The notes under the pieces are model-generated. The model was not told the origin of the DNA, did no database searches, and saw only the letters and a program-made list of their open reading frames with translations. A stretch of 62,194 bases of DNA, the filler included, from Collodictyon triciliatum (Eukaryota), in assembly GCA_043381765.1 (NCBI GenBank). It is 6 parts of 6 records of this genome, joined end to end, with 100 filler letters (N's around TTAATTAATTAA, not from the genome) between each part and the next. Parts side by side here need not be neighbours in the genome. Positions count along the whole stretch, not along the records: positions 40,571 to 62,194 come from JBHJMP010000045.1; 5 more parts are not named here. One strand, written 5' to 3'. This document shows, piece by piece, positions 54 through 60,300 of this stretch. The position numbers and the translations under genes were made by a program. Each line of letters starts with the position of its first letter. Positions within the stretch are counted from its first letter, which is position 1.

Positions 54-97
54 CTCGGTAGTTCTCTAAAGGAAAAAAATAAAATAAAGACTTTCAG

Positions 98-2066
98 ATG
101 AAGAAAAGAAAACGCCTTGAGTCTAAGAATCTAAAATTCATAAAACCACACTATGGAAATGTGAAAACATCCCTAAAGTCGGATGTAAAGAATGCAGATG
201 ACTATTACAAAACCAACGATACAGTTTTATTGTGCCATAACTTGGTTACTGACACTTTTCTGTTTGCAAGATGTTACATATTGAAATCACAACAACTCCC
301 AACAATCAATGAAAGTTTTTTTTTTTTGTGCGCTTTAAAGACAGTCAGAATTGTTTCACAAGATAGACCTGCGAGATTAAAAAAAAAAAAAAAACATCCA
401 GGTTTGAGAGATGACATGATGACCTTTTAACTTATTTATTTTCGATTCCTTTTGTCCCGAGAAGAACGCTTTCCGTTGGTTGAACTGTCTCTTGCATTAC
501 GTACTTGGCGAAGCAAATGCTAAAATCTTATCGTAATAACATTAAGATACATTTTGTGAAGAGGCTATTGCGCTTTACAAATCAAACAGTTCCTAAAGAT
601 GAAGAATATGTCCTAAGCTGTTAAAAAGGCAGAGCTTCGAAAGTTGAAAAAAAAAAAGCCATCTTCAAGAAGCTCGAAATACCGGAACAATATAAAGGAT
701 GGGCTAAAATACATTTGCATCATATCATAACCAGCGATATTGTAAATGGTATCGAATATGACGTCAAAGTCAATCCGGATAAGTGCATTCCATGTCTGAT
801 TTACATGTATCGAATTTTTGAGGACATTGAAACCAAGCTGCTTCAACCAATCTATATAAGATCTAACAATATACCGTGTCATAATACTCTAGATACTGCA
901 TGTTTGATAGTTCTATTAGTATTATCTGGGAAAACATTATTAATGAAGAATATATCAGGATGCAAAGAGACCCTATGAGATAATTTCTTTGAAATGAAGA
1001 AGGGGGTCTGTCATCGAAGGGACTACAATTTTAAATACATGATACAAACAGACAGTTTGGCGGTGTCATTATTATTTGAAAAGAAAGGTATTTCAAATTC
1101 AAAATCCAAACATAATCCAAAAGAACCAAGAATATGTTTATATAGATGAACTTTCCGAAGAGCAGCTATCTTTATTAGTGAAAAAATATGTAGTTGGAGT
1201 GGACGCAGGCAAGTTTAATTTGGTTTACATGGTGGATGAGGCAGGTAAGAAATTACGTTACACGGCACACCAAACAAGACACGATAGCAAATCTCTTAAA
1301 AATCACAAAATACTCTTGCGCGAGAAAAAAAAGTACAATGCTTCAGGGATATGCATGGCAACAGATTTACAAAGTGCTGTTTCTTTTGGTCTCAGGACTT
1401 TTGAAGAGAATCAGCAGTTTGAGACATCAAGAGTATCTTTAAACGATTTAGAGACAGAACTGAGTAAACATAACCCATGCACGGTCGATTATAAATAATT
1501 TCGAAAATATGTATCTATGAAATCAAGATGCCAGATAGAACTATCCAGATTTCATGAACACGGAAATTTTCGAAAGATGAGATGGAGACAGTATGTTAAT
1601 ACAAAAAGAAGTGAACAGTTGTTTATGGACCGAATCGAAAAGACATTTGGTAATGATGTTATACTGGCGTATGAAAACTGGAGCAGAAAATCTCCGATGA
1701 ACCATTTTATGCGAACAATCGGAAGAGGGTTACGAAAAATACCATCCAAATGTTTTGAAACAGTTAGTGTAGATGAATTTAGAACCTCCAAGATGTGTCG
1801 CCACTGCGAAAAAGAACTGGAATATATGACACTGAAAGGAAATTCAAAAAAAAGGTGTATATAAATGTCTCATATGTGAAGAATGCAATCGCCCAGAAAG
1901 CAAACAAAGTGTATTATTGACAAGGGACTTTAACAGCGCTAAAAATATAGTCAACAAAGTTCTTCTAATCCTACAAAATGTGCATACACCTTCCTCTAAA
2001 AAACAGGCTGTCGGGTCTTTCCCTGGCAGCCTTCACCACTACACAACCTTTGTGAAAAAGTGGTAA
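98..2066 (+). pseudogene. Disrupted Fanzor1-type (TnpB/Cas12-related) RNA-guided endonuclease
   Basis: Collinear fragments across frames: VKTSLKS (N-term), YLAKQMLKSYRNNIKIHFVKRLLRF (~503-577), YDVKVNP...KLLQPIYIRSNNIPCHNTLDTACL, FKYMIQTDSLAVSLLF (~1030-1077), RuvC-I VVGVDAG (Asp codon 1202-1204), AYENWS, RuvC-II VDEFRTSKMCRHC (Glu 1775-1777), CEEC, RuvC-III TRDFNSAKNI (Asp 1926-1928), stop TAA 2064-2066. In-frame stops (428-430, 976-978, 1496-1498) and several frameshifts; no introns. Confidence 0.88.
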
Positions 2067-3723: not shown

Positions 3724-6231
3724 AGCGATTGAAGTGGGTCTTACCATCAACTTCACTCTGGGGATATGTGTCTTTCCACTTTTCTTCCAATTGTGCTCTT
3801 CTTTCATGACAAACTTCTTGTGTCGAATCTCGCGAAGAAGCTCTTCTTCATCAGAGTCGAGATCTTCGACATCTTCCTGTTAAAAACAATCAAAACGAAA
3901 CAAAAGACGCTAAATAAATGTATTGCATTTTTCTCCGTTTGTTGTGTAGAACTCTCTCTCCTCTTGTAATAGACAGGGACTGGGGCTGACTGCCCTTCTG
4001 TTGTTACAAGGTTTGTCGAGAGGTAAAAATAATCATTCCAAAATAGATAGTAGGAGCAAACCTCATCAGTTGCCTCGGTTTCCAACTCTTTAAGTCTAAT
4101 TTCTTCATCTTTCTCGAGCTCTGCAAGCTTTGCCTCGATGTCTGGATCGATAAAGTCTGCGATGTTCTTACCATCCATGATTTCCGGGATAGTGTCATAT
4201 TTCCATTCATCTCTCTTCAGAAGATATTGCTCTAGTTTTTTTTTAATAATAGTATATGAATTTTAAGAAAAGAGAGAGGAAAAATGCAAAGTGGTTTGAG
4301 GTTGACTCTTTTTTTTTCTTCATCTCTTAGAGACTTTTAAAGTGGTGATGGTGATATGAAAATAATCGTGCATACTTCGTAAGTCAGCGCTGTAAACACC
4401 GGGGCCGCCTTCCTCCCACATCACGTCTTTTTCGAGTTTGCGCCCTTCAGATGATTCAGCCTCACCCATATTCGACCTAGCACGGATAACAGACTCTGGG
4501 ATGGTGACTTCTCTAACCTATTATATGTGGTCGTGACTTTTCATACACATGCACATTCTTGTATGATATTCATGTATAGAATAAGGCATTTACAGTCGAA
4601 TTTAAGGGTGTCATTATTTTTTTTTGGCGATATAGATTAAGCCTCACCTTGTTATCTCTCGGTTTCGGCTCTGCAAGATGGAGCCGGTTGAGCACATCGT
4701 TCGACTGGAGGAGAGAAAAGTAGATTCGGTCAACAATTCGTCGTATTATAAATGTTATTCGCCTTCTTCTGGAGGTCGTACCTCTTTTTTTGTCTTGAAA
4801 TTAAATTAAAAATCGTATGCAACCTTTTTGCTTCGCAACTTCTGGTCCACACGAGACGACAGAAGCTTCTCGCAAGCAGAGTTGCGTACAGTCATGACGC
4901 CTTCCTCACTGATGTTACTCATGTGGAGGATTTCGACATTTTCTTGTTGAGCAAGGGAAGCAATAAGGGACTTATCATCTTCTGGAATGTCTTCAAATCT
5001 ACGGATGTCAATTTTGTTGACTACAACAAGGAGTGGCTTATTGGCGAATAGTGGGCGAATGTTGTTGAACAAGGCGCACTAGATATAGTCACGGTAGTAG
5101 CAGTTAGTGCACAATATCTGAAGTGAGTGTCCAAGTGTTGTTTCCTTATACTGACTTTAGAATAGAGAAGAAAAAGATCGACAATAAAAGAATAATGAGC
5201 TTACTTGCTCGCGAATAGTGTAACCGCAACGCTCGGAAATGTCGATAATGTACAAAACAGATGCACGTAGATGGGCCAGAGCAGTGATTGATTGCATCTC
5301 GATAGTATTTCTTTCTTCTAAAGGGTGGTCTAGAATACCAGGGGTGTCGATACACTGCCAGCGCAGATAGTTGAAGTCAAAATGACCAACATACAAAGAC
5401 TTTGTGGTAAAAGCGTAAGGTTGAACCTATGATATAAGCAGGAAATGTGATAATGTGGTTTAACAGGAATGACACCCGTGAAGTTATTCGATCATTAAGC
5501 ATAAAATATTCCCAAGTTTTGATGACTAAGATGATGAAATTGATGAATATACCCACCTCTACATTTGCACGACTGATAATATTCATGAAACTACTTTTAC
5601 CGACATTGGGATACCCGCAGACAAGAATCGTGCGTGTATTGGGATCGATGGACGGGAGACGAGACAAGTGTTGACGCACCTGCGGGTTAAGCACAGAGTG
5701 TGATTACTATTTTGCAAAGAAAATAAAATAAATAAAAATACATTGTTATTTAATGAGGGACACGAAGAGTGAAAGGAAGCACAGGACGCTTTTGCAAGCG
5801 AAGCTGTGATAACGACCAACCTGCTCCAAATATTCCAGGCTGGACTTCATTCCTTTCACCACTGTGCACATTCTATGAGAGGTTTAATAGTTAACAGAAT
5901 TAATATTGACCATGCCAAAACCCTCGGGAAGAGGGTTCGTGGCGGTAGTAATACGAATGCCAATACTAATAACTAGAATGATAATGATAGTTGGAGGGAG
6001 AGGCAGTAAGGATAACGGGGGGAGAGAGAGAGGATCAGGCACCTTCCCAGTGCCGCACGCTTCAGTTGTTTGCAGCGGTACAAAGAGTCTCCGTACTTCA
6101 GCAGCTTCACGTAGTCTTTACCAAGTGTATCAACCAAGTGCAGCGAAGTGTTGACGTGGCCAAGAGCCAGTTTGTAGTGGTCGCGGTCGTACAGAACATT
6201 CATCAGGTCAGCATAGAAAGGGTGGATTTCC
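2466..6231 (-). CDS. NOG1: Nucleolar GTP-binding protein 1 (60S biogenesis GTPase), multi-exon, 5'-truncated at scaffold end
   Basis: Spliced GT-AG exons give [25 protein letters not shown]-loop [57 protein letters not shown] and C-terminal [28 protein letters not shown] (TAA 2466-2468). Confidence 0.96.
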
Positions 6232-8848: not shown

Positions 8849-8895
8849 AGCTAATAACAGGAAACCTATTATCTCACACTAACCCATAGTTACAG

Positions 8896-9810
8896 ATGGA
8901 TCACAAGAACGCGCGCTATGTCCCGCCAAAGACACAGCCAGATCATGGCAGCCCGATCAAAGCCGCAGTTGACCATGCAGAAGACAATGGGGACAATTCT
9001 TCCGAGGATTCTGGGGCGGGTGGAAAGCGAGACTGCGAGGCCAAGAGAGAAGAAGCGAACGCCAATACACCTTTCCCATTCGTTCAGAAGCTGGAAGAGA
9101 TCTTGAAGGATCAGCGGTGGAACGGAACAATTCGGTATGAAGACGACGGAAAGAGTATTGTCATCCAAGACTCTGCGCGTTTCACACAAGACGTGCTGCC
9201 GCTCTACTTTAAGCACCAAAACCTTCCGTCGTTCATTCGCCAGCTTAACATCTACGGTTTCCACAAAGCGTCGCATTCGCTACTACACTTCTCGCACCCT
9301 TCCTTTATTAAAAATCGGCCAGAGCTCCTCTCCCAGATATCCCGACGTCGCTCATCAAGAATTCTGAATTCTCCATACACCCATCCAACTCATTATGATT
9401 CCCATCACCTCCATCACGCAGAAGGGAAAGGACAACCAAACAGGTTAGAGTCAAGTACATTTCTGAAAGACAACCAGTACAACAGAAGGGAACACAGCTC
9501 GCCTTTTGAATCCCCAAGTCAATCTCCAAAAGCTGGAATGTCCAATCCGTCTTCACCAGACTCTCCTTCGGCACACGTTGATGATGAGGAAGCATCACAT
9601 AGGGCTCAAATATCGTCTTTGTCTGCATCATTTCGAGATTTGCATTCCAAAATACACGAAATACGAGAAGGCTACGAAAAAATTAAGGAAACGTTGTCTC
9701 AATTGGGAGAAGATATGACAACACTCCAAAAGCTACAAGATTCCATGCAGACCAATGCCGATCAAATTGTCGACCATCTTCATAGTATCGTTCCAGTTGG
9801 TATGGTTTAC

Positions 9811-9909
<99 letters not shown>

Positions 9910-10913
9910 ATTTTTTATCTTTTTATCTTTTTATCTTTTTGATTCACCTCCACCGTATCCAATTTTCTTACTCATTTCTTTCCCTGTTTGCCCCTCCCAA
10001 ATTGAACTCATTTGATACAAATTTCAGTCTTTTGAAAAAAAAAGGTAGAAATTAGAAAGTAAAAAAAGTGCGCCAAAATGATTCTTCAATATTTTATCAC
10101 ACCTTCTGCCTGTATATTTGCTTGCGGCTTACACATTTCTTGTGTGTATTTTCAGATATCCTCAATCAGATCAAAGGAGTTTCTCCTCAGAACCCTCTTA
10201 CTTCCCAGCCAAAACCACCGCCGTTTGAAGTACATGAAAACAGAACAACACATATTCCTCCAATTCACTTATCAAAGCCGAATAGTACTGATCTAATTGA
10301 AATGTACAAAGAACATGGGGATAAACATCAGCAGAGAATCTTTGATGACAATCGTATTACCGACCACCCTAGTGATAACAAAATAACTTCATGCCAAATC
10401 GCGACGTTAGGGGTGGTTGCCTCAGTAAATCAGTTCCAAACTCCGTCTAACAAGTATATGAGGCGAACTCAAAGTCACAAGTGGAATGCATTGAAACCTA
10501 AAACACAACAGCCAAAAAAGATATATGAAATCTTTGTTCCTGAGCGCCCTTTCCCAATACCTCTGTCATCCTTACCAAAGAAGCAGAATATTGTACTCTT
10601 AGGTTCACTAAGAGATATGCGTGATAATGGTAAGTAGTGCGATTGTCTTTCTCATGCTAATCGATGCAGTGGAGAATTATTGTCCACAACCCCTTTTAAA
10701 CGTTTCAATGTTTCTAATTTTGAAATCTTTGTAAAAGCAATCGACCCTGATTCATTACTGGTGCAAACTGCAATATCCGGTCTACAATCTTTGAGCAACT
10801 CAGACGATGTTCCAAAAATCACCGAGACTAAGATAACAGAGACAATACGTGATTTTAGAGCTAACCCGACGCCAAGAAGAATATACCAGTTTTTTCAAGG
10901 TATTTTCAAATGA
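8896..10913 (+). CDS. HSF-type DNA-binding transcription factor (multi-exon; 3' exon structure uncertain)
   Basis: HSF domain PFVQKLEEIL...IRYEDDGKSIVI...VLPLYFKHQNLPSFIRQLNIYGFHK...FSHPSFIKNRPELLSQISRR followed by a heptad coiled coil. GTATGG donor ~9800, TTCAG acceptor ~10156, and a further short intron near 10630-10669. Confidence 0.85.
9811..9909 (+). repeat. (ATCT)n intronic microsatellite
   Basis: Tetramer array immediately after the HSF intron donor. Confidence 0.95.
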
Positions 10914-40570: not shown

Positions 40571-40660
<90 letters not shown>

Positions 40661-42545: not shown

Positions 42546-45500
42546 TTATTGGGACATTGGGTCGAATGTAGATTTCCTTTCGGTGATTTTTTTCAATTCA
42601 TAAATTTTTTTCTGTATTGTGTTATTTTGGAAAAGTGGGACGACAAAAGCCACACCGATATAAAAAATCACCCAAATGGAATTTATCCCGACCAAAATAA
42701 CAGTAACCCACGCCTCAGAGCCAAGAAAACTCGACAAAAGAGCCAAGAAAAAGGAAATGAAAATGACATACAAGCTAGAGAGTTCCATTTGATTTTCAAT
42801 TTTTGAATTGTAAGGTCTGTACTCTTTCTGCATCCAAATGGAGCCCTGCATGTATATTCCTTCTTTTAAAAAAAAAAANNNNNNNNNNNNNNNNNNNNNN
42901 NNNNNNNNNNNNNNNNNNNNNNNNNNNNNNNNNNNNNNNNNNNNNNNNNNNNNNNNNNNNNNNNNNNNNNNNNNNNNNNNNNNNNNNNNNNNNNNNNNNN
43001 NNNNNNNNNNNNNNNNNNNNNNNNNNNNNNNNNNNNNNNNNNNNNNNNNNNNNNNNNNNNNNNNNNNNNNNNNNNNNNNNNNNNNNNNNNNNNNNNNNNN
43101 NNNNNNNNNNNNNNNNNNNNNNNNNNNNNNNNNNNNNNNNNNNNNNNNNNNNNNNNNNNNNNNNNNNNNNNNNNNNNNNNNNNNNNNNNNNNNNNNNNNN
43201 NNNNNNNNNNNNNNNNNNNNNNNNNNNNNNNNNNNNNNNNNNNNNNNNNNNNNNNNNNNNNNNNNNNNNNAAACATAAAATTACGAATAACGAACTTTAA
43301 ATAAAAATAAAAATAATTATAAACCTCTTTGTAAGGCAGATACAGAAATCCGTATCTGGCCCCGGGTTCATATCCAGGCTTCTCGACCATAATTTTCACT
43401 TTTTTCCAGAGGAATACAGGCAGTCCAACCAAAAATAAGATGAAAATAGGGACCGAAATGGCCAATAATTTTCGATACTCATCTGAGGCCGGGCTGCATG
43501 GTATCCATGGGGCATAATTTAGGTACCAAACATGCTCACCTTTGTCATAAACTGTGCACCCAAAGACACCAAAAACCTCGGTTGCGACAGAATAGTATAT
43601 AAGAAACAAGAGATTCAAAGTGATAAAGACTGCCTATAATAGTAATAGAAAAGTATGTTAAAATGGTGTCTTATAGATATCCATAAATCATATATTGTAC
43701 CTTATTCCTTCTGTGGCCGTATCCAAGATGGTAGACAGCAGTACCAATAAGAATAAATATTGGTATTCTTGAAAAACTAAATATTAATGACCCAAGCATA
43801 TCACCTTGAATGCGCGCACACGACAGGTTGGGAAATTGTATTGATCCAACAGAAGACGAAATGTCGAGAAATCTGTTTGCCTCATTCGTTTGCATCAATC
43901 CAGAAGAAAAAATTGACAAGGTTTGCATGTGAAACATGATGATTCTAAGCTTTGCTATTATTCATAAAAAAAAAACATTAAATAAGCATCTGATATCAGG
44001 TTTTTTATATGTGTTTCATCAAATACAATAAAAATAAACCAACCTGATTTTGATGTTTCCAAAAAGTAAAGATGGCATATGAGCAAAAAGAATCCGATAG
44101 AACATAGAATGATCGATGAGTAAACTGCCGAATTATTGCATTTTACGCATGACCTACCCTGAGGCACATACCCATCAACACATTTTGAGCAAGCATGACC
44201 TTCATATCCCTCTATACACAATTCAGTAACCTCCATCGTTTCGTTGGAATGAACGAGTTTACTTGGTATTATAGAATGACATGATTGTGGCCTTGGACAG
44301 GGTAGAATTGATTTAAGGTCATATAAAGTAGGAGAAGCATGACACTTCTCCAACGTAACCCCATTGACGCATTCACAGCCTCTTGGACATTGGATACAAT
44401 TGCTTCCATAACCAAAATAACCAGGCAAGCACTTACAATATTCAAAATCATAATAATGAGGATTTAAACCAACTTTTAGTTGAACAAGTCCTAGTTCTGA
44501 ATAAATTGAAGGGCACATGTAAAGCCTCGATTCATCTTCTAAGTTAAAGGGCGCAGAGTAGTTCATAAAATCTGGGATGAAATTAGATTTACCATGGTTC
44601 ATGAATGTTCCATTCAATCCCAAGTACTCTAGCTTCGAAAATTGGCTGTATGATTCAGGTATGCTCCCAAAAATTGGATTGCCAGACAGTTCCAGATAAC
44701 TCCACTTCAGGAGATTTGTTAGTTCCCCAAGTTTAGTTATCTTGTTGTTTTTTAGAATAAGAGTTTTTAAATTCTCTACAAAATTAAAAATTCTCCAGTT
44801 CATTTCCCCAAAAAGGTGGTTATCTCCGAGCAAAAGGATTTCATAACTGTAATTAAAGTATCCTGAATCAGGGACTAAGAAAACAACAACATCTCCAGAG
44901 AAAGAATTGTTTGTCAAATCTATAGAAATGAGGTTTGGTAAATTCCAAAAGAGGTTCGGCATACTTCCTGAGAATTGATTGTGCGATAAAGTCAGTGATT
45001 TTAGATGAAACATTTTTTGAAAGTATTCCGGAACTGTATCATTCATTTGATTTCTGGACAAATCGATGTATTTTATCAAAGGCACGTTCCAGTATCTAGG
45101 AATAGATCCAGATATACTATTTTCACTAACATCTAATTTAGACAAGTTAGGCAACTGGAAGAGAGGTAAACTTCCAGTAAAATTGTTTCTAAATAGGACC
45201 AACTCCTTCAACTTCAGGCAATACTCAAAACTTGGAACAAGCCCTTCCAAAAGATTGTCATAAAAAGATATATATTCCAAGTTTGGTGTATTTCTGAAAC
45301 TAGGAACAATACCTGTATTTTTAAAATTAGGGTATCGTATCATACAACATGTAAAGATGTGTTCAAATCACCTTCCAATTTATTTCCATCCAAGTAAATG
45401 CTTCGAAGCTCAGATATGTTGCTGAAATCCGGTATAGTTTCTGAAAACCGAGACAATTTCAGAAAATAGTATATTGTTTATGCATGAAAGAAAACTCACC

Positions 45501-47909
45501 ATTTAGTTTATTTCTAAAAAGATGAATTTCTTTCACAGTTTTAATCCACCGAAAGTTTGGCACAGAACCTGAAAATTACAACATTACCATACATGTATCC
45601 AAATGAATAAATTGGTAAATGAAACTGACCAATCAACTCATTACTGAAGAAGTAAATTCCTCGGATACTGGGTATTCTTCTAAAGTCTGGTATCGTTCCT
45701 ATATTCGATGTTATATGAATGGGCTCTCTCTTTTTCTATAAAAGTGTTTCTGCTATAGAATTGAACTGACCATTCAACTTATTGCTAAATATTCTTATAT
45801 ACTCTACTTTTGGCATCCCATCAAAGTCAGGTATGGTCCCTGTTAACTTGGAATTAGTAGATATTATTTTTTTAGGAAAAATTTCCTGCATCAACATACC
45901 ACTCAATTGATTGTTGAATAGGTACAACTCCTTGACGTTTGGAATTTTGCTAAAGTTTGGTATTGTCCCTACGTTTTTATTATTTTTTTCAGCACTCAAG
46001 ACTAATTTCATGAGAATTTTTTAATTTGTCTTACCACTAAATTGATTACTAAAAAGTCGAATGACTTCTACTTTTGAAATTTCGCTAAAGTCTGGGATTG
46101 ATTCTGCATTTATTATTTCAGTGAAAGTCCAAATTGCATTTTTTTTCACAAACTTAGATTAATCTCACCCTCAAGTAGATTTCCCGATATTACCATCCAC
46201 TTTAAATTTGCGATGTTGATAAAGTCTGGTATCTCTCCTATTGTTATTTAAAAATCAGCACTTATTTTGCTCACAATAAAAAAAATCAAGTACATACCAC
46301 TTAGTTGATTGCTGTACAAGAAAATATATTGAACGTTTGGAATTCTGCTAAAGTTAGTGACGGTTCCTAAAAAAAATTATGAGATCGAATTCATAAAATG
46401 CGTATGCATTTATTATTACCTGTTAATTTATTGTTTGAAAGGTTAATGCGATTAAGATTTTGAATTCTATTAAAATCCGGTATGGAGCCTGTGAACATTA
46501 TTATAATTAGGAATACGCTCAATTTTCATTAATCTAGAAAGAACAAATTATCTGACATAATTTACTCACCACTGAGTTGGTTATCGCTCAAATTTATCAC
46601 ATTAATATTTGGAATATTGCTGAAATTGATAACGGTCCCTGAAAGACAAATGATTTTTTTTTGTTAGCATGCATGAAAAATTTTGAAAAAAAAAACACAT
46701 ACCGTTGATTTTAGAACCGTATATTGCAAGAAGTTGTAGATTTGACAGCCTAGAAAAATCAGGAAGGGTTCCTGGTTTCATTTTTAGTAAGGTATGCTGT
46801 TTTTTAATCAAACGAGTATTTTTTTTTGACAATTTAATCCTTAACACACCGATTGAAAAGTAAACATACCAATGATTTTTTCACTCCCTCCAATCCACAA
46901 CACTTTAAGAAATGCAAGACCTGAGAAGTCGGGAATGGTCCCTTCCATATTGTTTCCATCAATTTCCAAATAGTAAATGGATGGAATGTGCTTAAAGTCT
47001 GGAATTTTTCCTGTTATTTTGTTCTTGTAAACACTAAATAATAGCAAGTTTGGAAGTTTGAAGTCGTAAAGTCCCCCGTAAATTGAATTGTAACTCATGT
47101 CCAAGGATATAATATACTTAAGCTGTTCAATATATGAGAACGCTACTTCGATGTTTCCAAAAAGATTGTTTTTTACCATTTCCAATCCAGTAATCGGGCA
47201 TAAATTGGCCTATTAATATAATTAACATAAATTTGATATTAGAAAAATAGAAATGTATCCTACCTTGTAATCATCTTCTAAGCAGCTATCATAGCAGCTG
47301 ATTCCATACCATTCGCATATCGGAATGCTGTAATTTTTCCATCCATAAGAATTAAACCAATAATCACCGTCGAGTAAATCATAAACTGCGACAAGAGCAT
47401 CGTATTGACCAGAGAAAATAGATGTAGGTGTTGTTTGATCTAGGGAACCTAATTTTTTTTCAACTGATTCATCTCTGACATCATATTTCGGGTCCCTTTC
47501 AAGTCTTATATGTGTTTCAAACGAAAAATTTGCATTTGAGTTAATTTGGTCGACGCTTTCGGCAATCAGTTCAGAATCACTGAGGTATTTTCTGTCCGCT
47601 CTTGGGACTCGATGATCTTGAAAACTAAGACTTGGATCAAGGCACACTTCTTCGTAGAGATTCATCAGTATTTGAAAAGAGTCTTCAATTCTCATCGTCA
47701 AAAGTTCATCTTTTGAATAGCTCAAACAAATCCTGTTTTTTTATTTTAAAAATGTAAAAAACAATAATAAAAAACATCAAATTTGTGATTTTCAATGCAG
47801 AAAATTTTTCTGATGGTTTAAACCTCTCTGATGATTGAGCGAAGGAGAAGAGAGAAATTAAAACAAGTGCGGAGCCAATTGTGTTCTTGAAATTTAGCCT
47901 TATATGCAA
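42546..47909 (-). CDS. LRR / Cys-rich / multi-pass transmembrane receptor-like protein (start approximate; internal 392-N gap)
   Basis: Hydrophobic leader, LRR N-cap (ALVAVY...W...GW...ICEWYGISC), >20 LRRs of GxIPxF...LxxNxLxG type, Cys-rich region (CKCLPGY..CIQCP..CIEGYEGHACSKCVDGY..CVKC), then several TM helices with YGFLYLPYK and RPYNSKIENQME motifs; stop at 42546. Confidence 0.88.
45372..46771 (-). repeat. Array of eleven 69-nt single-LRR exons (all phase 1-1)
   Basis: Exons 46703-46771, 46570-46638, 46420-46488, 46298-46366, 46169-46237, 46035-46103, 45900-45968, 45771-45839, 45630-45698, 45500-45568, 45372-45440. Each is bounded by AG and GT; introns between them are 53-81 nt. Confidence 0.92.
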
Positions 47910-50900
47910 AATATCGATTCAGTATAAATGATAAATTAATCATACTACAATCCTGTTCGTTATAAAATGAAAATATGACAGCATCAAATCGTGATAATTA
48001 TTTATACTATATTGATATTGGTTTTATTCTTATGTTCATTTTTCTTTAGAGCATGCTTTTGCATTTTATATCAAATTTTAATCAAACGGACTATGGTCAA
48101 TAATAAAGCAATCAAATGCAAACTTTATCATGCAGCCTCTCATCTTTTTCAATTTCAGAGTCAGTGGGTCGAGATAAAGAGTAATAACAATCACCCTCGT
48201 CTGATTGGGATGCTGATTTATTTCTTTTCCTAATTTTTGTGGATTAAGATGAAAATGATAGTTGAAACCATCCATATTAAAAACTGTATGAAGCTAAAAA
48301 ATTGAGGCAAATAAAAAATTCAAATACTGATCCAATTTAATGAAAAAATTATCGTTTTCAACTTTAAATAATTAGCTCTTGAATATTTTAATCATTATTT
48401 ACATATTTTGTAATCAATTAGTAATAAAAGCTTTAATATTTTAGAAATTTATATTTAATTTCAATTCTGTAATACAGCATGGAGAATTTTCATCAGAATT
48501 ATTGTTATTTTAAATATGGAATTATATTGGAATTAAGGTAATTTTAATATGTTTTTGGTCTTAAAGGTGATTGATAATCATCTGAATTATTGATTCAATA
48601 TATTTATGAACAAAAAAAGTTCTACTGATGGTATCGCTTTGATTAACTCACATGATAAAAAGTTTATATGATAAATTTATTTTAGGAGAAATCATCTCAA
48701 TAGAATAGAAACGTTCAAAGAGTTACATATATGTTTGGGTTTTTATACACTTCATATTGGCTTGATTAACTACTTTGGAGAAAATGGACGCACATCATTA
48801 AAAATTTTGATAATAATTTTACGTTCTATTCTTCAATTAAACTATAAAAAATTATTGAAAATAACTGATACAAATATAATCATCAATATTAGTTAAAGAA
48901 ATCGTATCAGTTGGTCTTGCTTTAATGAATAGTTGATTGTCAGGGTTTTCAATAGGCTTTTTCAATATTGACTTGTTATTGAGACATGCATTTATCATAT
49001 TTAATATATTAAAGTAATACAGAGATATGGTGATCAATTATATATGGTTTTTGAGGTACATTTTTTTCTGTTAATTTGCCGAATCCTTGATTTTATAAAA
49101 AAAAAAAAAGAAAAGTGAACTTCAGTTATTCAAAAACTATTCCCATAGGACTTTATTATCACACAAAATTAAGAATATTATCCAAGGATTTAAAAAGTAG
49201 ATAAACTCAATATTTCGGTACCATTATATTTAGATTAAGGTAATTTTCCTATATGCAATTTAGTAATTGTTTATTTTATAGCTCATTGCATGGCATTGAA
49301 TATTGTGAGGTTGATGTATTATCATAAAAAAATTTGTTCGTGAGGAAAATGAGTGAAGTGCCTTTATATTCAAACATAAGAGGAACGATAGAAATCGATA
49401 TTTATTTATCTATGATGGAAATATTCCTCCATAATTTTATACAAATACATTGCGTATAAATTTCATATACAGTCATAATTATAGAATTTTTTGTGTGATT
49501 GCAAACATAAATATTGATATATCTAAAATAAAAATATTATATTTGATTTTAATTAATCAAAATTTTTTACTTAATTATTTTTACTATTCTGATATTTTTG
49601 AATTAAATCGTTTAACCGACGAAAATCTATTTGCCTTTTTTATATTGGCAAAGCATTTTCTTCTGATAGTTATTTATTTTAAAAGGTAGTTTGAGTGTTT
49701 GCCTGGTCATTTAACCTGCTCTTATTTATCAAATAGCTGATAACGGCTTGAATTTTGTACGATATATTTCATAAGTAAAAACCCCATTTTTTTTCATTTT
49801 TGATGACCCTCAAATCTTAAAGAAAATTGCGACCCCGTTACCAAAAGGCTTTCTTGCACCTCTGATGCTGCAGGTAGAATGTTCATTTCCTTAAAAATAA
49901 AAAGCTCTTTTATAAAAAAAAAATTAATAACAATAATAATAACACAGTTTCATATTGATAGGAAACTTCCAACAATTTTTATCGAATTCTATGAGCCAAT
50001 CATTTTACTTACGAAAAGGGGTAATTCAATATCACATAAATAAACCAATATGATAAAAATATTGTTGGCACGGGCGCCAACAGCTAAGTCTGTCGTGTAT
50101 AAAAAAAATAAACCAATATGATCTCTATGAGGCCGCCTCGAATACGCACAAGAAACCTCCCTTATAAGAAAACTATCGTTATTCTATGAATAAAAAACTG
50201 TATGTGCCATCCTTTAATTTTTAATTGCTGCACGATGACGATTTTCAGAACCTCATAATAGACTCTTAAAAAAATAAACGAAGAGCATGTAGGATATTGA
50301 AAGGGTTTCTGGGTAAGCTTGAAGAGGGTAAAATAGATCTGATAGTTTCGTTTAGACCACTTAAAGGGGATCAAAGATAGTCTCGTTTCCACTCTTCTGC
50401 GCTTGTAAACCTTCATTCCAACTCCAAAACGATTATAAAAAAATAATTGATCAAGCAATGAGAGAAATGCAAATGTTTGACTTCACCCATCCCTGAAGAG
50501 TGTTTATAACCGGCTTCCAGTGGATTATTGAAGTTTCTGAGCGCTCGACCAGACATAGTACCTTGCTCAATATTTGGAGTCCCTCTTTCGAGAGCGTTGT
50601 TGGGACGGGTGCTGAGCTTTTTTACTTGGAACTTCAGGAGACTGTGTTGATCGCTGCTCCTTCGCGGACATAGTCCGATTTAGTTGGCCATCCAATCTCC
50701 GAATCAACATAATTTTGCTTTCGTTTATCACTCCTCCCTTTGTCAAAATATACTCCACCGCCTTTGACACCAAAATCGAGGGCCTTGTTTGATGAAAGGT
50801 CTTCAGGCACACCAATCCACAAATCAAAGAGCGCCCAAGAGCAGAACCTGCACGGAACCGGCTGCTGCATCCGCCTTCAATGTAATTGCAGGCTGCCACT

Positions 50901-57367: not shown

Positions 57368-60300
57368 NNNNNNNNNNNNNNNNNNNNNNNNNNNNNNNNN
57401 NNNNNNNNNNNNNNNNNNNNNNNNNNNNNNNNNNNNNNNNNNNNNNNNNNNNNNNNNNNNNNNNNNNCTCTTCTCTTCTCTTCTCTTCTCTTCTCTTCTC
57501 TTCTCTTCTCTTCTCTTCTCTTCTCTTCTCTTCTCTTCTCTTCTCTTCCTTTTCATGGCCAAGAACTAATTTTCCTCCTGCAATTTTAAGCATCGATGAG
57601 AGACAGGAACCAATAATGAGCTCCGAAGATTCATATGTGGAAATGAAAACTACCAGACGCAAGTCCAGAACGAAGGTATGAATATTGGACCAAAGTTCTT
57701 GAAATAACTAACCTCCAAATCTATTTAATACTATTATTTATTTATCTATTTATTTATTTTTACATTCTACTTTAAGCTTAATAAAGAAGTAGACCATCCG
57801 ATGTACCGAGGTTTGTCCAACAGTTTATCACCACTCGAAGACGTTAATTTACGAACTCTTCTTTTATTTTATTTTATTTTATTTTATTTTATTTTATTTT
57901 ATTTTATTTTATTTTATTTTATTTTATTTTATTTTATTTTATTTTATTTTATTTTATTTTATTCTTGATTATCTGCCTCATAGTCCTCCCTATACAGAAC
58001 CACAAAACAAGGAAAGATACCACACGCGGTTCTCGGAAATGGGGACCAAATGCAGTCATGTGATTGAATACGGCAATCTTACCATATCCCTTGAAGGGCT
58101 ACTGTCGCCCACAAACGAGGAAGATGAAACTCCTGGAGAATACATGGCTGTAACAAAACTTTTCATCACTATGCTGCCTCCAAAGTCAACAGATGGAGCA
58201 CAAAGAGATGATAGCACCAAAGGACAGTCTTTGGCTATCCTTGATTTTACCAGTCAGGTCAGAATAGATGATAGAGTTACCGTAGTGAGTGAACTTCGTA
58301 AAGAGGGACTCTTCAATGGACTTGCATTGGATTTCACTGACGGTCCTCACATCAAGACGCGGTCGTCTCTCCTCAGATCTCCAAGATTATTCAGTGCTCA
58401 GGGTCAACCAAACCCAGCAATATTTTCTCATCCACCACCGCCAACAGTCACGCCAAACCCGCCACCACAAGAGCAAAGCAACTCTGCCAAACAAGGAAGT
58501 GGCTTTCCTTTCTCAAGTGCTACGACTCCGTCTGCTCCTCCGAATTTATTTATGTCATCCACAAATCCTGTGCCCATCACAGCATCACAAACTCAAAAGC
58601 AGGAAGCCTCTCAATTCAACTTTTTTTCGGTCAGCGCTCCAACCGCACCTGGCTCGGCAGTAAACCCTCAGAAAACACCAGGGATTGGTTCTTTTACTGC
58701 ACCAATATTTCCAAACGCATCGGCAACCCAAACGCCGGTAGGCCAAGGACAGAGCATTGCTGGTAGTAGTAGTAGTAGTACTAATACTACTAGTAGCAGC
58801 AGCTTTACTATCCCAAAAACAGAACCTACATCTATAAAGAAAAAGGAGTCACACCCCATACTATCGTCTTCACAGACTCAGGATGAAGAAGAGGGTAAAG
58901 AAATAACATCACAATCAAACAGTAATCCTCTTGTGTCGAAATTCCCATCAATTTCCTTTTCGGCCTTGAAACAAGGTAATTCTGAGGCTGGTGTGTTGCC
59001 AACTCAATTTAACACGCTGACTTCATCAAAAGCAAACACACCGGCTGCAACAAATTCACCATTTCAAATAAGCGCATCATCTACAACAAATCCACCTGCC
59101 AAACCAAACCCACCGGCCACAACAAATTCGCCATTTCAAATAAGCGCTTCATCTACAACAAATCCACCGGCCACAACAAATTCACCATTCCAAATAAGCG
59201 CATCATCTACAACAAATCCACCTGCCAAACCAAACACACCGGCTGCAACAAATTCACCATTTCAAATAAGCGCATCGTCTACAACAAATCCACCGGCTAC
59301 AACAAATTCACCATTTCAAATAAGCGCATCGTCTACAACAAATCCACCGGCTACAACAAATTCACCATTCCAAATAAGCGCATCATCTACAACAAATCCA
59401 CCTGTCAAACCAGACACACCGGCTACAACAAATCCACCATCTCAAATAAGCGCGCCGTCTACAACCAACCTGCAGAATCCAATTGCATTCACAGCAGCAC
59501 CACAAACCAGCCTCAACCTTGGTCAAAGCAATCCCGCCAATCCTTTCCAGTTCACGCAATCAAGTACCACCCAACCTCCCAGCATGTCAGGTTTCCAGAA
59601 TAAACAAGCTTTATCCGGTTTCTTCGGGGGTGTTGCCAGCGTCTCACTTTCGGACCCAAATGCACTCACTTCAGGAACACAGACTACAAAACAACCCACC
59701 AACTCAAACTTTCTTTCATCTACGCCTGTTCTTCAGACAAACGCACAGGCTCCTGCGTTTCCGTTTGCCACACCAGCAGCTTTTGTAAACCCTGCGCCAG
59801 GTGTTAATCCCATGGCAGGCTTTGCACCTTCAGGCGCGAACGCAACCTCGAATCCTCCCTTGTTTAGCACGTCGACAACAAACTCTGCTTCAGGATTCGG
59901 TTTTACCTTCGGGAAAAGTGAGAGTGCCACAACTTTGCCGACTTTTCCATCCGCGACAACAGCTGCTCCAGGAGCAACCAATCCGATGACTGGATTTGCA
60001 GCTCCGGCAAGTACGCAATCACCTGCATCAAATATCTTTGCAGGGTTTGTCCCCGGGCAAGGTCAGATTGGCCAAAGCGGTGCCCCGCTTTCCACTTCAG
60101 CATCTGGCTTTGGTTCGATGAGTGGCTTTGGTTCAATGGGTAGCTTTGGTACGACTCCAGCACAGAATCTAGCAGGTTTGTCTTCTCTATTTGTTCTTGA
60201 CTGGAGGCCAGTCCGAAACATACAGAAAGAAATTTAATGGCTTTTCCTTCCTTTCTTTTACTTTTTTTTCTATTTAATTATGTTACTTATTGTTTGTTTC

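Follow-up and report, generated by a model that had tools for sequence, protein, structure and literature searches.

Do eleven consecutive exons of identical length, each encoding a single leucine-rich repeat (LRR), mark a receptor gene whose repeats are still being exchanged, or are they what remains of an old amplification? The question is raised by a gene of the eukaryote Collodictyon triciliatum, located on the minus strand at about 47984-42546 of a 62,194-nt stretch of assembly GCA_043381765.1. This stretch, hereafter the window, consists of six parts of six records joined end to end with filler, and its positions 40,571 to 62,194 come from JBHJMP010000045.1. The gene product begins with a signal peptide and an LRR N-cap, continues with about 28 LRRs of plant type and a Cys-rich stalk, and ends in about nine membrane helices; it has no kinase. 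We conclude that the array probably goes back to an old tandem amplification of one exon, whose copies have since diverged and are spliced constitutively into a single receptor-like protein with a Pkd2/Flc-like membrane domain. Nothing at the locus indicates ongoing, somatic or regulated exchange of these exons.

Anatomy of the cassette array

Positions 43800-47800 were scanned for open-frame segments of 69 nt with AG before and GT after them. The scan recovered eleven consecutive exons on the minus strand, at 46771-45372, each exactly 69 nt long and each encoding one LRR of 23 residues. In the order of transcription these cassettes are cassette 1 (GTLPDFSRLSNLQLLAIYGSKIN; 46703-46771), cassette 2 (GTVINFSNIPNINVINLSDNQLS; 46570-46638), cassette 3 (GSIPDFNRIQNLNRINLSNNKLT; 46420-46488), cassette 4 (GTVTNFSRIPNVQYIFLYSNQLS; 46298-46366), cassette 5 (GEIPDFINIANLKWMVISGNLLE; 46169-46237), cassette 6 (ESIPDFSEISKVEVIRLFSNQFS; 46035-46103), cassette 7 (GTIPNFSKIPNVKELYLFNNQLS; 45900-45968), cassette 8 (GTIPDFDGMPKVEYIRIFSNKLN; 45771-45839), cassette 9 (GTIPDFRRIPSIRGIYFFSNELI; 45630-45698), cassette 10 (GSVPNFRWIKTVKEIHLFRNKLN; 45500-45568) and cassette 11 (ETIPDFSNISELRSIYLDGNKLE; 45372-45440). 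Residue F6 of the scaffold is invariant, and N20 is present in ten of the eleven.

All cassette exons end in G, which is followed by GT, and the next exon contributes the last two bases of the split codon. This codon specifies Gly in nine cassettes and Glu (G/AA) in cassettes 6 and 11. All 12 introns that touch a cassette are in phase 1, with G/GT...AG sites. The ten internal introns measure 64, 81, 53, 60, 65, 66, 60, 72, 61 and 59 nt, and the array is bordered by an intron of 98 nt before cassette 1 (46869-46772) and one of 59 nt after cassette 11 (45371-45313). If retained, nine of the 12 would introduce an in-frame stop. The 60-nt intron between cassettes 7 and 8 (45840-45899, minus strand) has no in-frame stop, and its retention would add 20 residues while keeping the frame; two further introns, of 64 and 61 nt, also lack an in-frame stop, and their retention would shift the frame.

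When the window was searched on both strands with a DNA profile of the cassettes, all eleven exons were recovered at E <= 1e-12. The only other matches below E 0.5 were four further LRRs of the same gene (E 3.7e-4 to 0.076), located at 47013-46944 (E 3.7e-4), 46943-46866 (E 2.3e-3), 45315-45243 and 45075-40. The cassette pattern is far beyond chance. The splicing pattern is read from the GT-AG sites, the open frame and homology, and the homology support for it consists of collinearity with proteins derived from mRNA. On the side of the genomic DNA, four freshwater-metagenome DNA runs were compared, in which the pieces falling on the window are short (259 nt at most). One 259-nt contig, from run X1, spans 46480-46739 and carries the end of cassette 1, the whole of cassette 2 and the start of cassette 3 in the order of the window; X1 may itself be the source from which the window derives. 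Among the matches listed, the pieces of at least 151 nt (from X1, X2 and X4) differ from the window by at most one letter and one gap. A single joint from 44457 to 45729 in one contig of run X3 (side 21, likeness threshold 85) is of an artefact-prone kind and was not used.

The cassettes also show a feature of the concave face, where positions 16 and 18 are mostly aromatic in cassettes 4 and 6-10 (46366-46298 and 46103-45500). Position 18 is Phe in cassettes 6-10 and Tyr in cassette 4; position 16 is Tyr in cassettes 7, 9 and 11, Phe in cassette 4 and His in cassette 10. This aromatic strip could be a ligand groove or merely a matter of packing.

Much of this anatomy had been anticipated by a sequence-only reading of the same DNA. 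The eleven 69-nt exons with their common phase 1-1 split were found again by our scan, and the eleven beta-strand octamers quoted in that reading coincide exactly with cassette residues 13-20. Its statement that the flanking LRRs lie in long exons with no introns between repeats agrees with the exons at 47209-46870 (340 nt) and 45312-44044 (1269 nt), and the intron range it gave, 53-81 nt, is true of the ten internal introns. It had further held that any cassette could be lost, duplicated or swapped in frame. Edited in silico, the frame indeed stays open after all 11 single deletions, all 55 pair swaps and all 11 duplications. This interchangeability follows from the way in which the array arose and is in itself no evidence that exchange continues.

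Age of the cassettes and probable turnover of the repeats

Two cassettes share on average 54% of their nucleotides (range 42-70%). Between cassettes, third codon positions are 37% identical, compared with 62% at positions 1 and 2, and synonymous sites are near saturation, given the AT-rich DNA. The longest exact match between any two cassette places is 13 nt. Tandem Repeats Finder detected no array here, while a repeat finder grouped seven of the eleven units at 60-73% identity. The sequence-only reading had taken the differing beta-strand faces of the cassettes as a sign of diversification; such differences from repeat to repeat are normal in any LRR protein and by themselves are no such sign.

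The introns have diverged further than the exons. With splice sites removed, intron pairs reach a mean local alignment score of 15.0, against 14.7 for shuffled sequences, and only one of 66 intron pairs exceeds the shuffled 99th percentile, compared with 14 of 55 exon pairs. The introns retain position and phase only, and their similarity is lost. When DNA and peptide profiles of the cassettes were run against introns, opposite strand and the rest of the window, relic, inactivated or antisense LRR exons were not found; at 53-98 nt, the cassette introns are too short to have held relic exons. Likewise, no cassette bank, second LRR gene or loose cassette was found on either strand of the 62-kb window.

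At the protein level, the cassettes are 40% identical among themselves, whereas identity is 32% with four units that flank them and 28-34% with repeats from the six homologues that were compared. Five of the eleven cassettes have their nearest neighbour within the gene, whose share of the pool is 0.11, and comparable counts were obtained within homologues (five of 12 in P0127 and six of 16 in P0128). Judged from these sequences, the cassettes show signs of common descent, and the duplications that presumably gave rise to them are old.

The age of the copies can be set beside the behaviour of the same zone across the family. The gene model aligns from end to end with the transcript-derived protein P0001 (37% identity over 1124 columns, the global alignment ending at an assembly gap in the gene). 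The alignment is free of gaps across the cassette zone, with a single 23-residue indel of one whole repeat downstream of it. Positional orthology was assessed by scoring the collinear pairing of repeats against 20,000 permuted pairings, with gapped units left out (P0002 and P0127 for the cassettes, P0121 for the long exon at 45312-44044). For nine membrane-proximal units of that exon, the collinear pairing stands out against P0001, P0122, P0002 and P0127 (z 5.7-6.1), and none of the 20,000 permutations reaches the diagonal. For the eleven cassettes, in which the test is weaker since all share one scaffold, z is 0.99, 0.64 and 2.18 (p 0.16, 0.26 and 0.016) against P0001, P0121 and P0122. A separate orthology test of the cassettes against P0001 was not significant (p 0.15). 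The collinear excess per unit is about 2 score units for cassettes, compared with about 40 for the proximal LRRs.

Identity to homologues is 33-38% in the cassette zone, while the proximal LRRs reach 40-44% and the stalk and membrane domain 39-42%. The stretch between LRR cap and Cys-rich stalk is 260 residues long in the shortest and 857 in the longest of 15 members, the window gene among them, which corresponds to about 11-37 repeats. The number of 23-residue spacings is 13 to 22 in the larger members and 14 in the window gene. From this family comparison, it is in the cassette zone that the ectodomain is plastic in evolution, a pattern that ordinary repeat turnover or relaxed constraint would also produce.

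The account that we consider probable starts from an ancestral LRR exon with a phase-1 intron that would have split the Gly codon of GxIPDF behind its first base. The unit of LRR exon plus intron would have been duplicated in tandem long ago, and the regularity of 69 nt and phase 1 would be a fossil of that event. The copies would then have diverged under the usual constraints on LRRs, and the cassettes would now be spliced constitutively into one ordinary gene product. Over evolutionary time, the zone of 23-residue repeats would gain, lose and remodel repeats, while the proximal LRRs, stalk and membrane domain would be conserved by position. In the resulting protein, a ligand-binding LRR arc would be coupled to a Pkd2/Flc-like membrane domain.

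An alternative that draws on the same observations is active exon shuffling in the germline, in which unequal or ectopic recombination among paralogues adds, removes and swaps 69-nt exons under diversifying selection. Symmetric phase 1-1 exons that can be exchanged in frame are what such a process would work on. It would also suit a multigene family whose LRR span varies from 11 to 37 repeats, with runs of 23-residue spacing that differ between members, and a cassette zone with no or marginal positional orthology, unlike the other parts of the ectodomain, and with the lowest identity to homologues (33-38%, against 39-44% in the other repeat, stalk and membrane regions). A precedent exists in Ectocarpus and other brown algae. 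Yet no pair of cassettes exceeds 70% nucleotide identity, and with exact matches of at most 13 nt the array offers no present substrate for homologous exchange. The introns of 53-98 nt hold none of the relic or antisense LRR exons that were the key evidence in Ectocarpus, and the window contains neither a second LRR gene nor a loose cassette. The membrane-domain family has few members in public databases (64 clusters of 50% identity), and the closest relative, P0131 (63% identity), spans only the conserved part. We consider ongoing shuffling unlikely.

A more far-reaching version would make the cassette zone the specificity module of a protist receptor repertoire, renewed by exchange of exons between paralogues and wired to a Pkd2/Flc-like, possibly ion-conducting domain. 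If true, this would be a family of LRR-gated, channel-type receptors for the recognition of prey, pathogens or self, following the exon-shuffling logic of the brown-algal ROCO genes in an unrelated lineage and protein context. The variable-receptor system proposed by the sequence-only reading stands in part: the gene belongs to a multigene family with 11-37 repeats and a cassette zone with no or marginal positional orthology. The remainder is not supported: the cassettes are old (54% nucleotide identity), their introns are dissimilar, and neither relics nor a bank occur in the window. Such a repertoire strikes us as distinctly unlikely.

Variation could instead arise after transcription, if skipping among the eleven symmetric exons yielded isoforms with different numbers of LRRs. 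Any subset of cassettes can be removed in frame, and alternative splicing of one-LRR exons is documented for Ectocarpus ROCO genes and reported for human NLRP3. The closest homologues are Trinity isoforms numbered up to i20, a weak hint that repeats alone can cause. Against this, the twelve introns are short and carry standard G/GT...AG sites. Splicing of introns as short as these proceeds by intron definition, under which retention is favoured rather than skipping. Retention would itself meet an in-frame stop in nine of the 12 cases, and the transcript-derived P0001 contains a full run of repeats, collinear with the window gene. We hold exon skipping to be very unlikely.

Still less probable, in our view, is parallel gain of introns at one proto-splice site, the G/G of the conserved Gly codon, in an LRR array that was originally intronless. 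In favour of such a gain, all junctions are G/G or G/A in the conserved codon of GxIP, no sequence similarity links the introns, and three adjacent repeats of the same type are intronless. However, duplication of one unit is much the more parsimonious course when set against twelve independent insertions of identical position and phase, all confined to one contiguous run of repeats of equal length. The cassettes also resemble one another more closely than they resemble the flanking repeats, and in the documented cases the same arrangement arose by duplication.

In the variable lymphocyte receptors (VLRs) of lampreys, the germline gene is completed by copying LRR cassettes from flanking banks. 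A comparable somatic assembly is so improbable here as to be negligible: the resemblance of the modelled LRR arc of a family member (P0123) to hagfish VLR (2o6q_A, Z 18.1) is one among many to LRR proteins, whereas the germline gene is complete and in open frame, and no cassette bank occurs in the window, which reaches about 42.5 kb past one end of the gene and about 14 kb past the other.

The receptor-like protein and its relatives

The remaining exons describe what the product of the gene would be. Spliced together, the exons can be read without interruption for 1129 residues until an assembly gap (a run of N) is reached, after which about 100 further residues lead to a stop at 42546. All coding parts lie on the minus strand. 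The probable first coding exon, with an ATG at 47984 (47946-47984), is a model only, being one of 13 frame-compatible combinations of ATG, donor and acceptor and picked by intron length and donor; a modelled 60-nt intron (GTATGA...AG, 47945-47886) links it to the next exon, in which no in-frame ATG is present. That exon (47824-47885) encodes the hydrophobic core of the signal peptide (..NTIGSALVLISLFSFAQSSE), at a position matching the signal peptide of P0001, and is followed by a phase-2 intron of 91 nt (47823-47733). The N-terminal region and the LRR N-cap, with the Cys motif C.W.G.xC, occupy the exon at 47264-47732, which was assigned by alignment to homologues. It has no Pfam match itself, and LRRNT_2 is weak in the homologues. 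A phase-0 intron of 54 nt (47263-47210) then leads to the 340-nt exon with the first five or so LRRs (46870-47209), identified by Pfam LRR_1 and LRR_4 and by the cassette profile. The last two LRRs of this exon are of the GxIPDF type, like the cassettes, with no intron between them.

Downstream of the cassettes, the 1269-nt exon at 44044-45312 encodes about ten membrane-proximal LRRs of irregular length (22-29 residues), the Cys-rich stalk and membrane helix 1. Its LRRs are recognised by LRR_8 (E 4.2e-20), LRR_4 (E 4.8e-18) and LRR_1 (E 1.4e-16), and the stalk gives VSP (E 8.5e-4) and DUF7630 (E 7.3e-3), both below the Pfam cut-off. Membrane helices 2-3 are encoded at 43701-43954, between introns of 89 nt (44043-43955) and 67 nt (43700-43634). 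The most conserved exon of the membrane domain (43325-43633) specifies a helix, an extracellular hairpin and another helix, and the hairpin bears two conserved Cys in the motif EVFGVFGCT..D..WYLN..PWI.C. The assembly gap at 42879-43270 hides about 37 residues of the membrane domain, as estimated from P0001. The last coding part (QGSIWMQ...MSQ; 42546-42848, stop codon 42548-42546) would contribute the two or three helices at the end of the protein; its acceptor site is provisional, and its resemblance to the C-terminal end of P0001 is a judgement by eye.

The 917-residue ectodomain contains 20 N-x-S/T sequons, nine of them within cassettes, and several hydrophobic segments follow it. No kinase was matched by Pfam in any exon of the window or in P0001, P0003 and P0005, where multiple membrane helices are found instead. 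The overall fold was modelled with AF2 on the family member P0123 (730 residues; pLDDT 83.3, pTM 0.65), in whose model an LRR arc is followed by a Cys domain rich in beta structure and by about nine long helices. In VIA-align, the LRR arc of this relative superimposes on the plant receptors ERL1 (Z 21.4, rmsd 2.8 over 221 residues) and TDR (Z 21.2), and in Foldseek it matches PSKR (4z64_A, E 2.9e-10). Most likely, the LRR surface of the window protein would recognise a ligand or surface outside the cell, such as prey, matrix or other cells, and the signal would be relayed via the multi-pass domain, a function suggested by this architecture.

The best database relatives of the gene are four transcriptome-derived EukProt proteins that cover 98-100% of the long exon at 31-41% identity; all other database matches of this exon are to LRRs alone. 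The closest relative, P0131, is 63% identical over 291 residues, covers the conserved proximal part only and ends within three residues of the window exon border. A search with the C-terminal third of P0001 added eight more transcript proteins, the JGI protein P0129 (E 1.1e-6, 31% coverage, no Pfam record) and Dictyostelium discoideum P0130. All of these except P0129 combine LRRs with the membrane region. P0130 matches the C-terminal part of P0001 at E 5.9e-5 (87% coverage, 23% identity) and has the same order of parts as the window protein, namely a signal peptide, an LRR N-cap, LRRs, a Cys-rich region and about eight hydrophobic segments. This distant D. discoideum protein is the only named relative with the full architecture, the closest relatives being transcriptome proteins.

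The most conserved membrane exon (43633-43325, 103 residues) was compared by exhaustive HMMER search with 1.84 billion representatives, of which 64, each a cluster of 50% identity (P0151-P0207 and others), were found at E <= 1e-3 and 37 at E <= 1e-10; none exceeds 51% identity. P0121, P0122, P0001 and P0123 match this exon at E 3e-28 to 6e-24. In the 30 longer relatives that were scanned, LRRs are present in 22, four of which also have FG-GAP repeats and one a NIDO domain. LRR_ComC (PF24141) matches the LRR part in six of 13 family members. A search of JGI metagenomes for related loci gave 591 pattern matches with the family alignment and 41 with the exon alone, none of which was confirmed.

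A link between this membrane domain and a known family is provided by PF06011. Ten of 24 further relatives match this profile at E <= 0.01 in the same region, at profile positions of about 225-414. One of them, P0189, scores 28.9 bits and thereby exceeds the cut-off of 28.5 bits, and the nine others lie between E 3e-4 and 0.01; P0168 gives E 3.8e-5 (23.1 bits). In the 13 close family members, PF06011 appears in two, at E 0.07 or weaker. A feature search of a protein atlas also pointed to a domain of the PF06011 type. Taken together, these profile matches suggest a distant relationship between the membrane domain and the 'TRP-like' domain (PF06011) found in the Pkd2/Flc proteins of fungi. In fold searches, the P0123 model returned results filled by LRR matches, and a membrane-only relative, P0159, gave a confident AF2 model (pLDDT 87.0, pTM 0.81). 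The best VIA match of P0159 (Z 7.7) is a 68-residue helical hairpin, within the background for helical proteins, and TRP or polycystin structures are absent from the fold-search matches of the membrane-domain model. Searched with phmmer, P0189 has no match among PDB sequences at E <= 10.

Several of these observations tell against old amplification with constitutive splicing into a receptor of Pkd2/Flc type. Constitutive splicing is assumed from GT-AG sites, frame and homology, and paralogues with shuffled or near-identical cassettes could exist outside the window. The missing positional orthology of the cassettes is also expected from repeated turnover or from diversifying selection. Three flanking repeats of the same type as the cassettes have no introns, so intron loss, or intron gain followed by amplification, must also be invoked. 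With regard to the membrane domain, the window's own membrane exons have no Pfam match, the PF06011 link is transitive and mostly below the cut-off, and the P0159 membrane fold finds no convincing match among solved structures (best Foldseek E 0.22). We nevertheless continue to regard old amplification as the probable origin of the array.

The rest of the window contains several unrelated features. Four adjoining open frames of 115, 117, 151 and 121 residues at 83-1864 (plus strand) look like a degraded or intron-split transposase, with a GVDAGK motif and a C-terminal CxxC...C; Pfam matches them with DDE_Tnp_ISAZ013 only, below threshold (E 2.2e-3, 17.5 bits). One conceivable candidate is an element of TnpB/Fanzor type. 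The C-terminal exon of a NOG1-type nucleolar GTP-binding protein is located at 3804-4262 on the minus strand (NOGCT, E 4.1e-17) and could serve in placing the organism taxonomically, and a heat-shock-factor-type DNA-binding domain (PF00447, E 2.4e-26) followed by a coiled-coil is encoded at 8890-9942 on the plus strand, in a frame that enters a (TATC)n-like repeat. An 814-residue frame at 57793-60237 (plus strand) consists of many near-identical Ser/Thr/Pro-rich repeats (..TTNSPFQISASSTTNPPA..) with terminal FG/GFG motifs. It resembles an FG-nucleoporin and has no Pfam match; its GC content is 46%, compared with roughly 34% for the LRR gene. Neither an Rfam scan nor a tRNA scan gave any match in the window. 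The window has the character of a draft assembly, with GC swings from 25% to 50% between adjoining 2-kb blocks and 20 runs of N, mostly of exactly 100 nt or paired as 44+44 nt and often inside (GA)n, (AAG)n or (TTC)n microsatellites.

Known one-repeat-per-exon arrays and what the gene adds

Arrays with one LRR per exon have been described in other lineages. The precedents in brown algae and ciliates named by the sequence-only reading are borne out by the literature. In the ROCO genes of Ectocarpus and Saccharina, which carry 'type I' arrays, each exon encodes one LRR, is 72 nt long and is in phase 2 (Zambounis et al. 2012, PMC3341825; Teng et al. 2024, PMC11378527). The window gene resembles them in its one-LRR exons of fixed length, its single intron phase, the possibility of in-frame exchange and its plant-like repeats, and in both cases the exon begins at the Gly of GxxP and ends after NxLx. 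It differs from them in exon length (69 nt, or 23 residues) and in phase (phase 1). In Ectocarpus, intact and inactivated LRR exons lie within introns and on the opposite strand, and the shuffling was termed 'highly dynamic' (PMC3341825), whereas the introns in the window hold no relic exons. The protein context also differs, since ROCO proteins are cytosolic (LRR-ROC-COR) and the window protein combines extracellular LRRs with a multi-pass membrane domain.

The ciliate Tetrahymena has 90-bp LRR exons in phase 2, tens of thousands of which, many of them young, are spread over more than 1000 genes in each species, and the authors read these arrays as products of exon duplication and shuffling (Xiong et al. 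2019, PMC6564038). Tandem exons of equal length, one intron phase and a junction codon that joins neighbours are common to Tetrahymena and the window gene. Unlike the ciliate arrays, the one described here is seen in a single gene, with exons of 69 nt in phase 1 and copies that are old. In animals, the LRR exons of the gonadotropin (LH) receptor are in phase 2 (as cited in PMC11378527), and those of NLRP3 are modular, with in-frame skipping demonstrated (PMC6642158). The symmetric exons of animal LRR genes are taken as growth by duplication of a prototype exon, an interpretation that parallels ours; phase and exon length differ from those of the window gene.

As regards the repeats themselves, the closest likeness is to plant LRR receptors and related proteins (ERL1, TDR/PXY, RGFR1, PSKR, FLS2, MIK2 and PGIP), with which the window protein shares the consensus LxxLxLxxNxLxGxIP, the N-cap motif C.W.G.xC and about 30% sequence identity over the LRRs. 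ERECTA-type plant genes also have one LRR per exon. Unlike the plant receptor kinases, the window protein has neither a kinase nor a single-pass anchor, its repeat is of 23 residues rather than 24, and its output module would be a domain of about nine helices.

For that module, the fungal Pkd2/Flc proteins are the nearest known counterparts. Schizosaccharomyces pombe Pkd2p comprises a signal peptide, an extracellular ML-like domain and a multi-pass 'TRP-like' domain (PMC6727746; see also PMC9727806 for the family). The layout of signal peptide, extracellular domain and multi-pass membrane domain is shared with the window protein, and PF06011 matches the C-terminal half of the membrane domain in the relatives of the latter. 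The ectodomain differs, consisting of LRRs and a Cys-rich stalk in place of the ML-like domain. By analogy only, a Cys-rich ectodomain followed by nine helices also recalls Dictyostelium SadA, an adhesion receptor with nine membrane helices and EGF-like repeats (PMC2173991).

The window gene is one more case of the known kind of exon-per-repeat LRR array seen in brown algae, ciliates and animals, and it differs from the known arrays in its exons of 69 nt, its phase 1, its protein context and its lack of any marker of recent activity. In the literature searched, there is no mention of 69-bp or 69-nt exons together with leucine-rich repeats. Taken at face value, the gene adds a further lineage to those in which one symmetric exon independently gave rise to an LRR domain. 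Here the border of the exon falls at the Gly of GxIP, the same place as in the brown-algal ROCO genes, with another length and phase. The case bears on how often this architecture arises and on whether exon symmetry alone predicts diversification, which here it does not.

A by-product of the analysis, more novel than the array, is a small eukaryotic family that joins plant-type LRR ectodomains, sometimes with FG-GAP or NIDO domains, to a nine-helix domain. This family appears to be undescribed in the literature searched, in which DUF7630, PF24633, LRR_ComC and PF24141 are likewise not mentioned. Should the cassette zone prove to be polymorphic or alternatively spliced, the gene would offer a tractable system for studying how receptors diversify in lineages other than animals, plants and brown algae.

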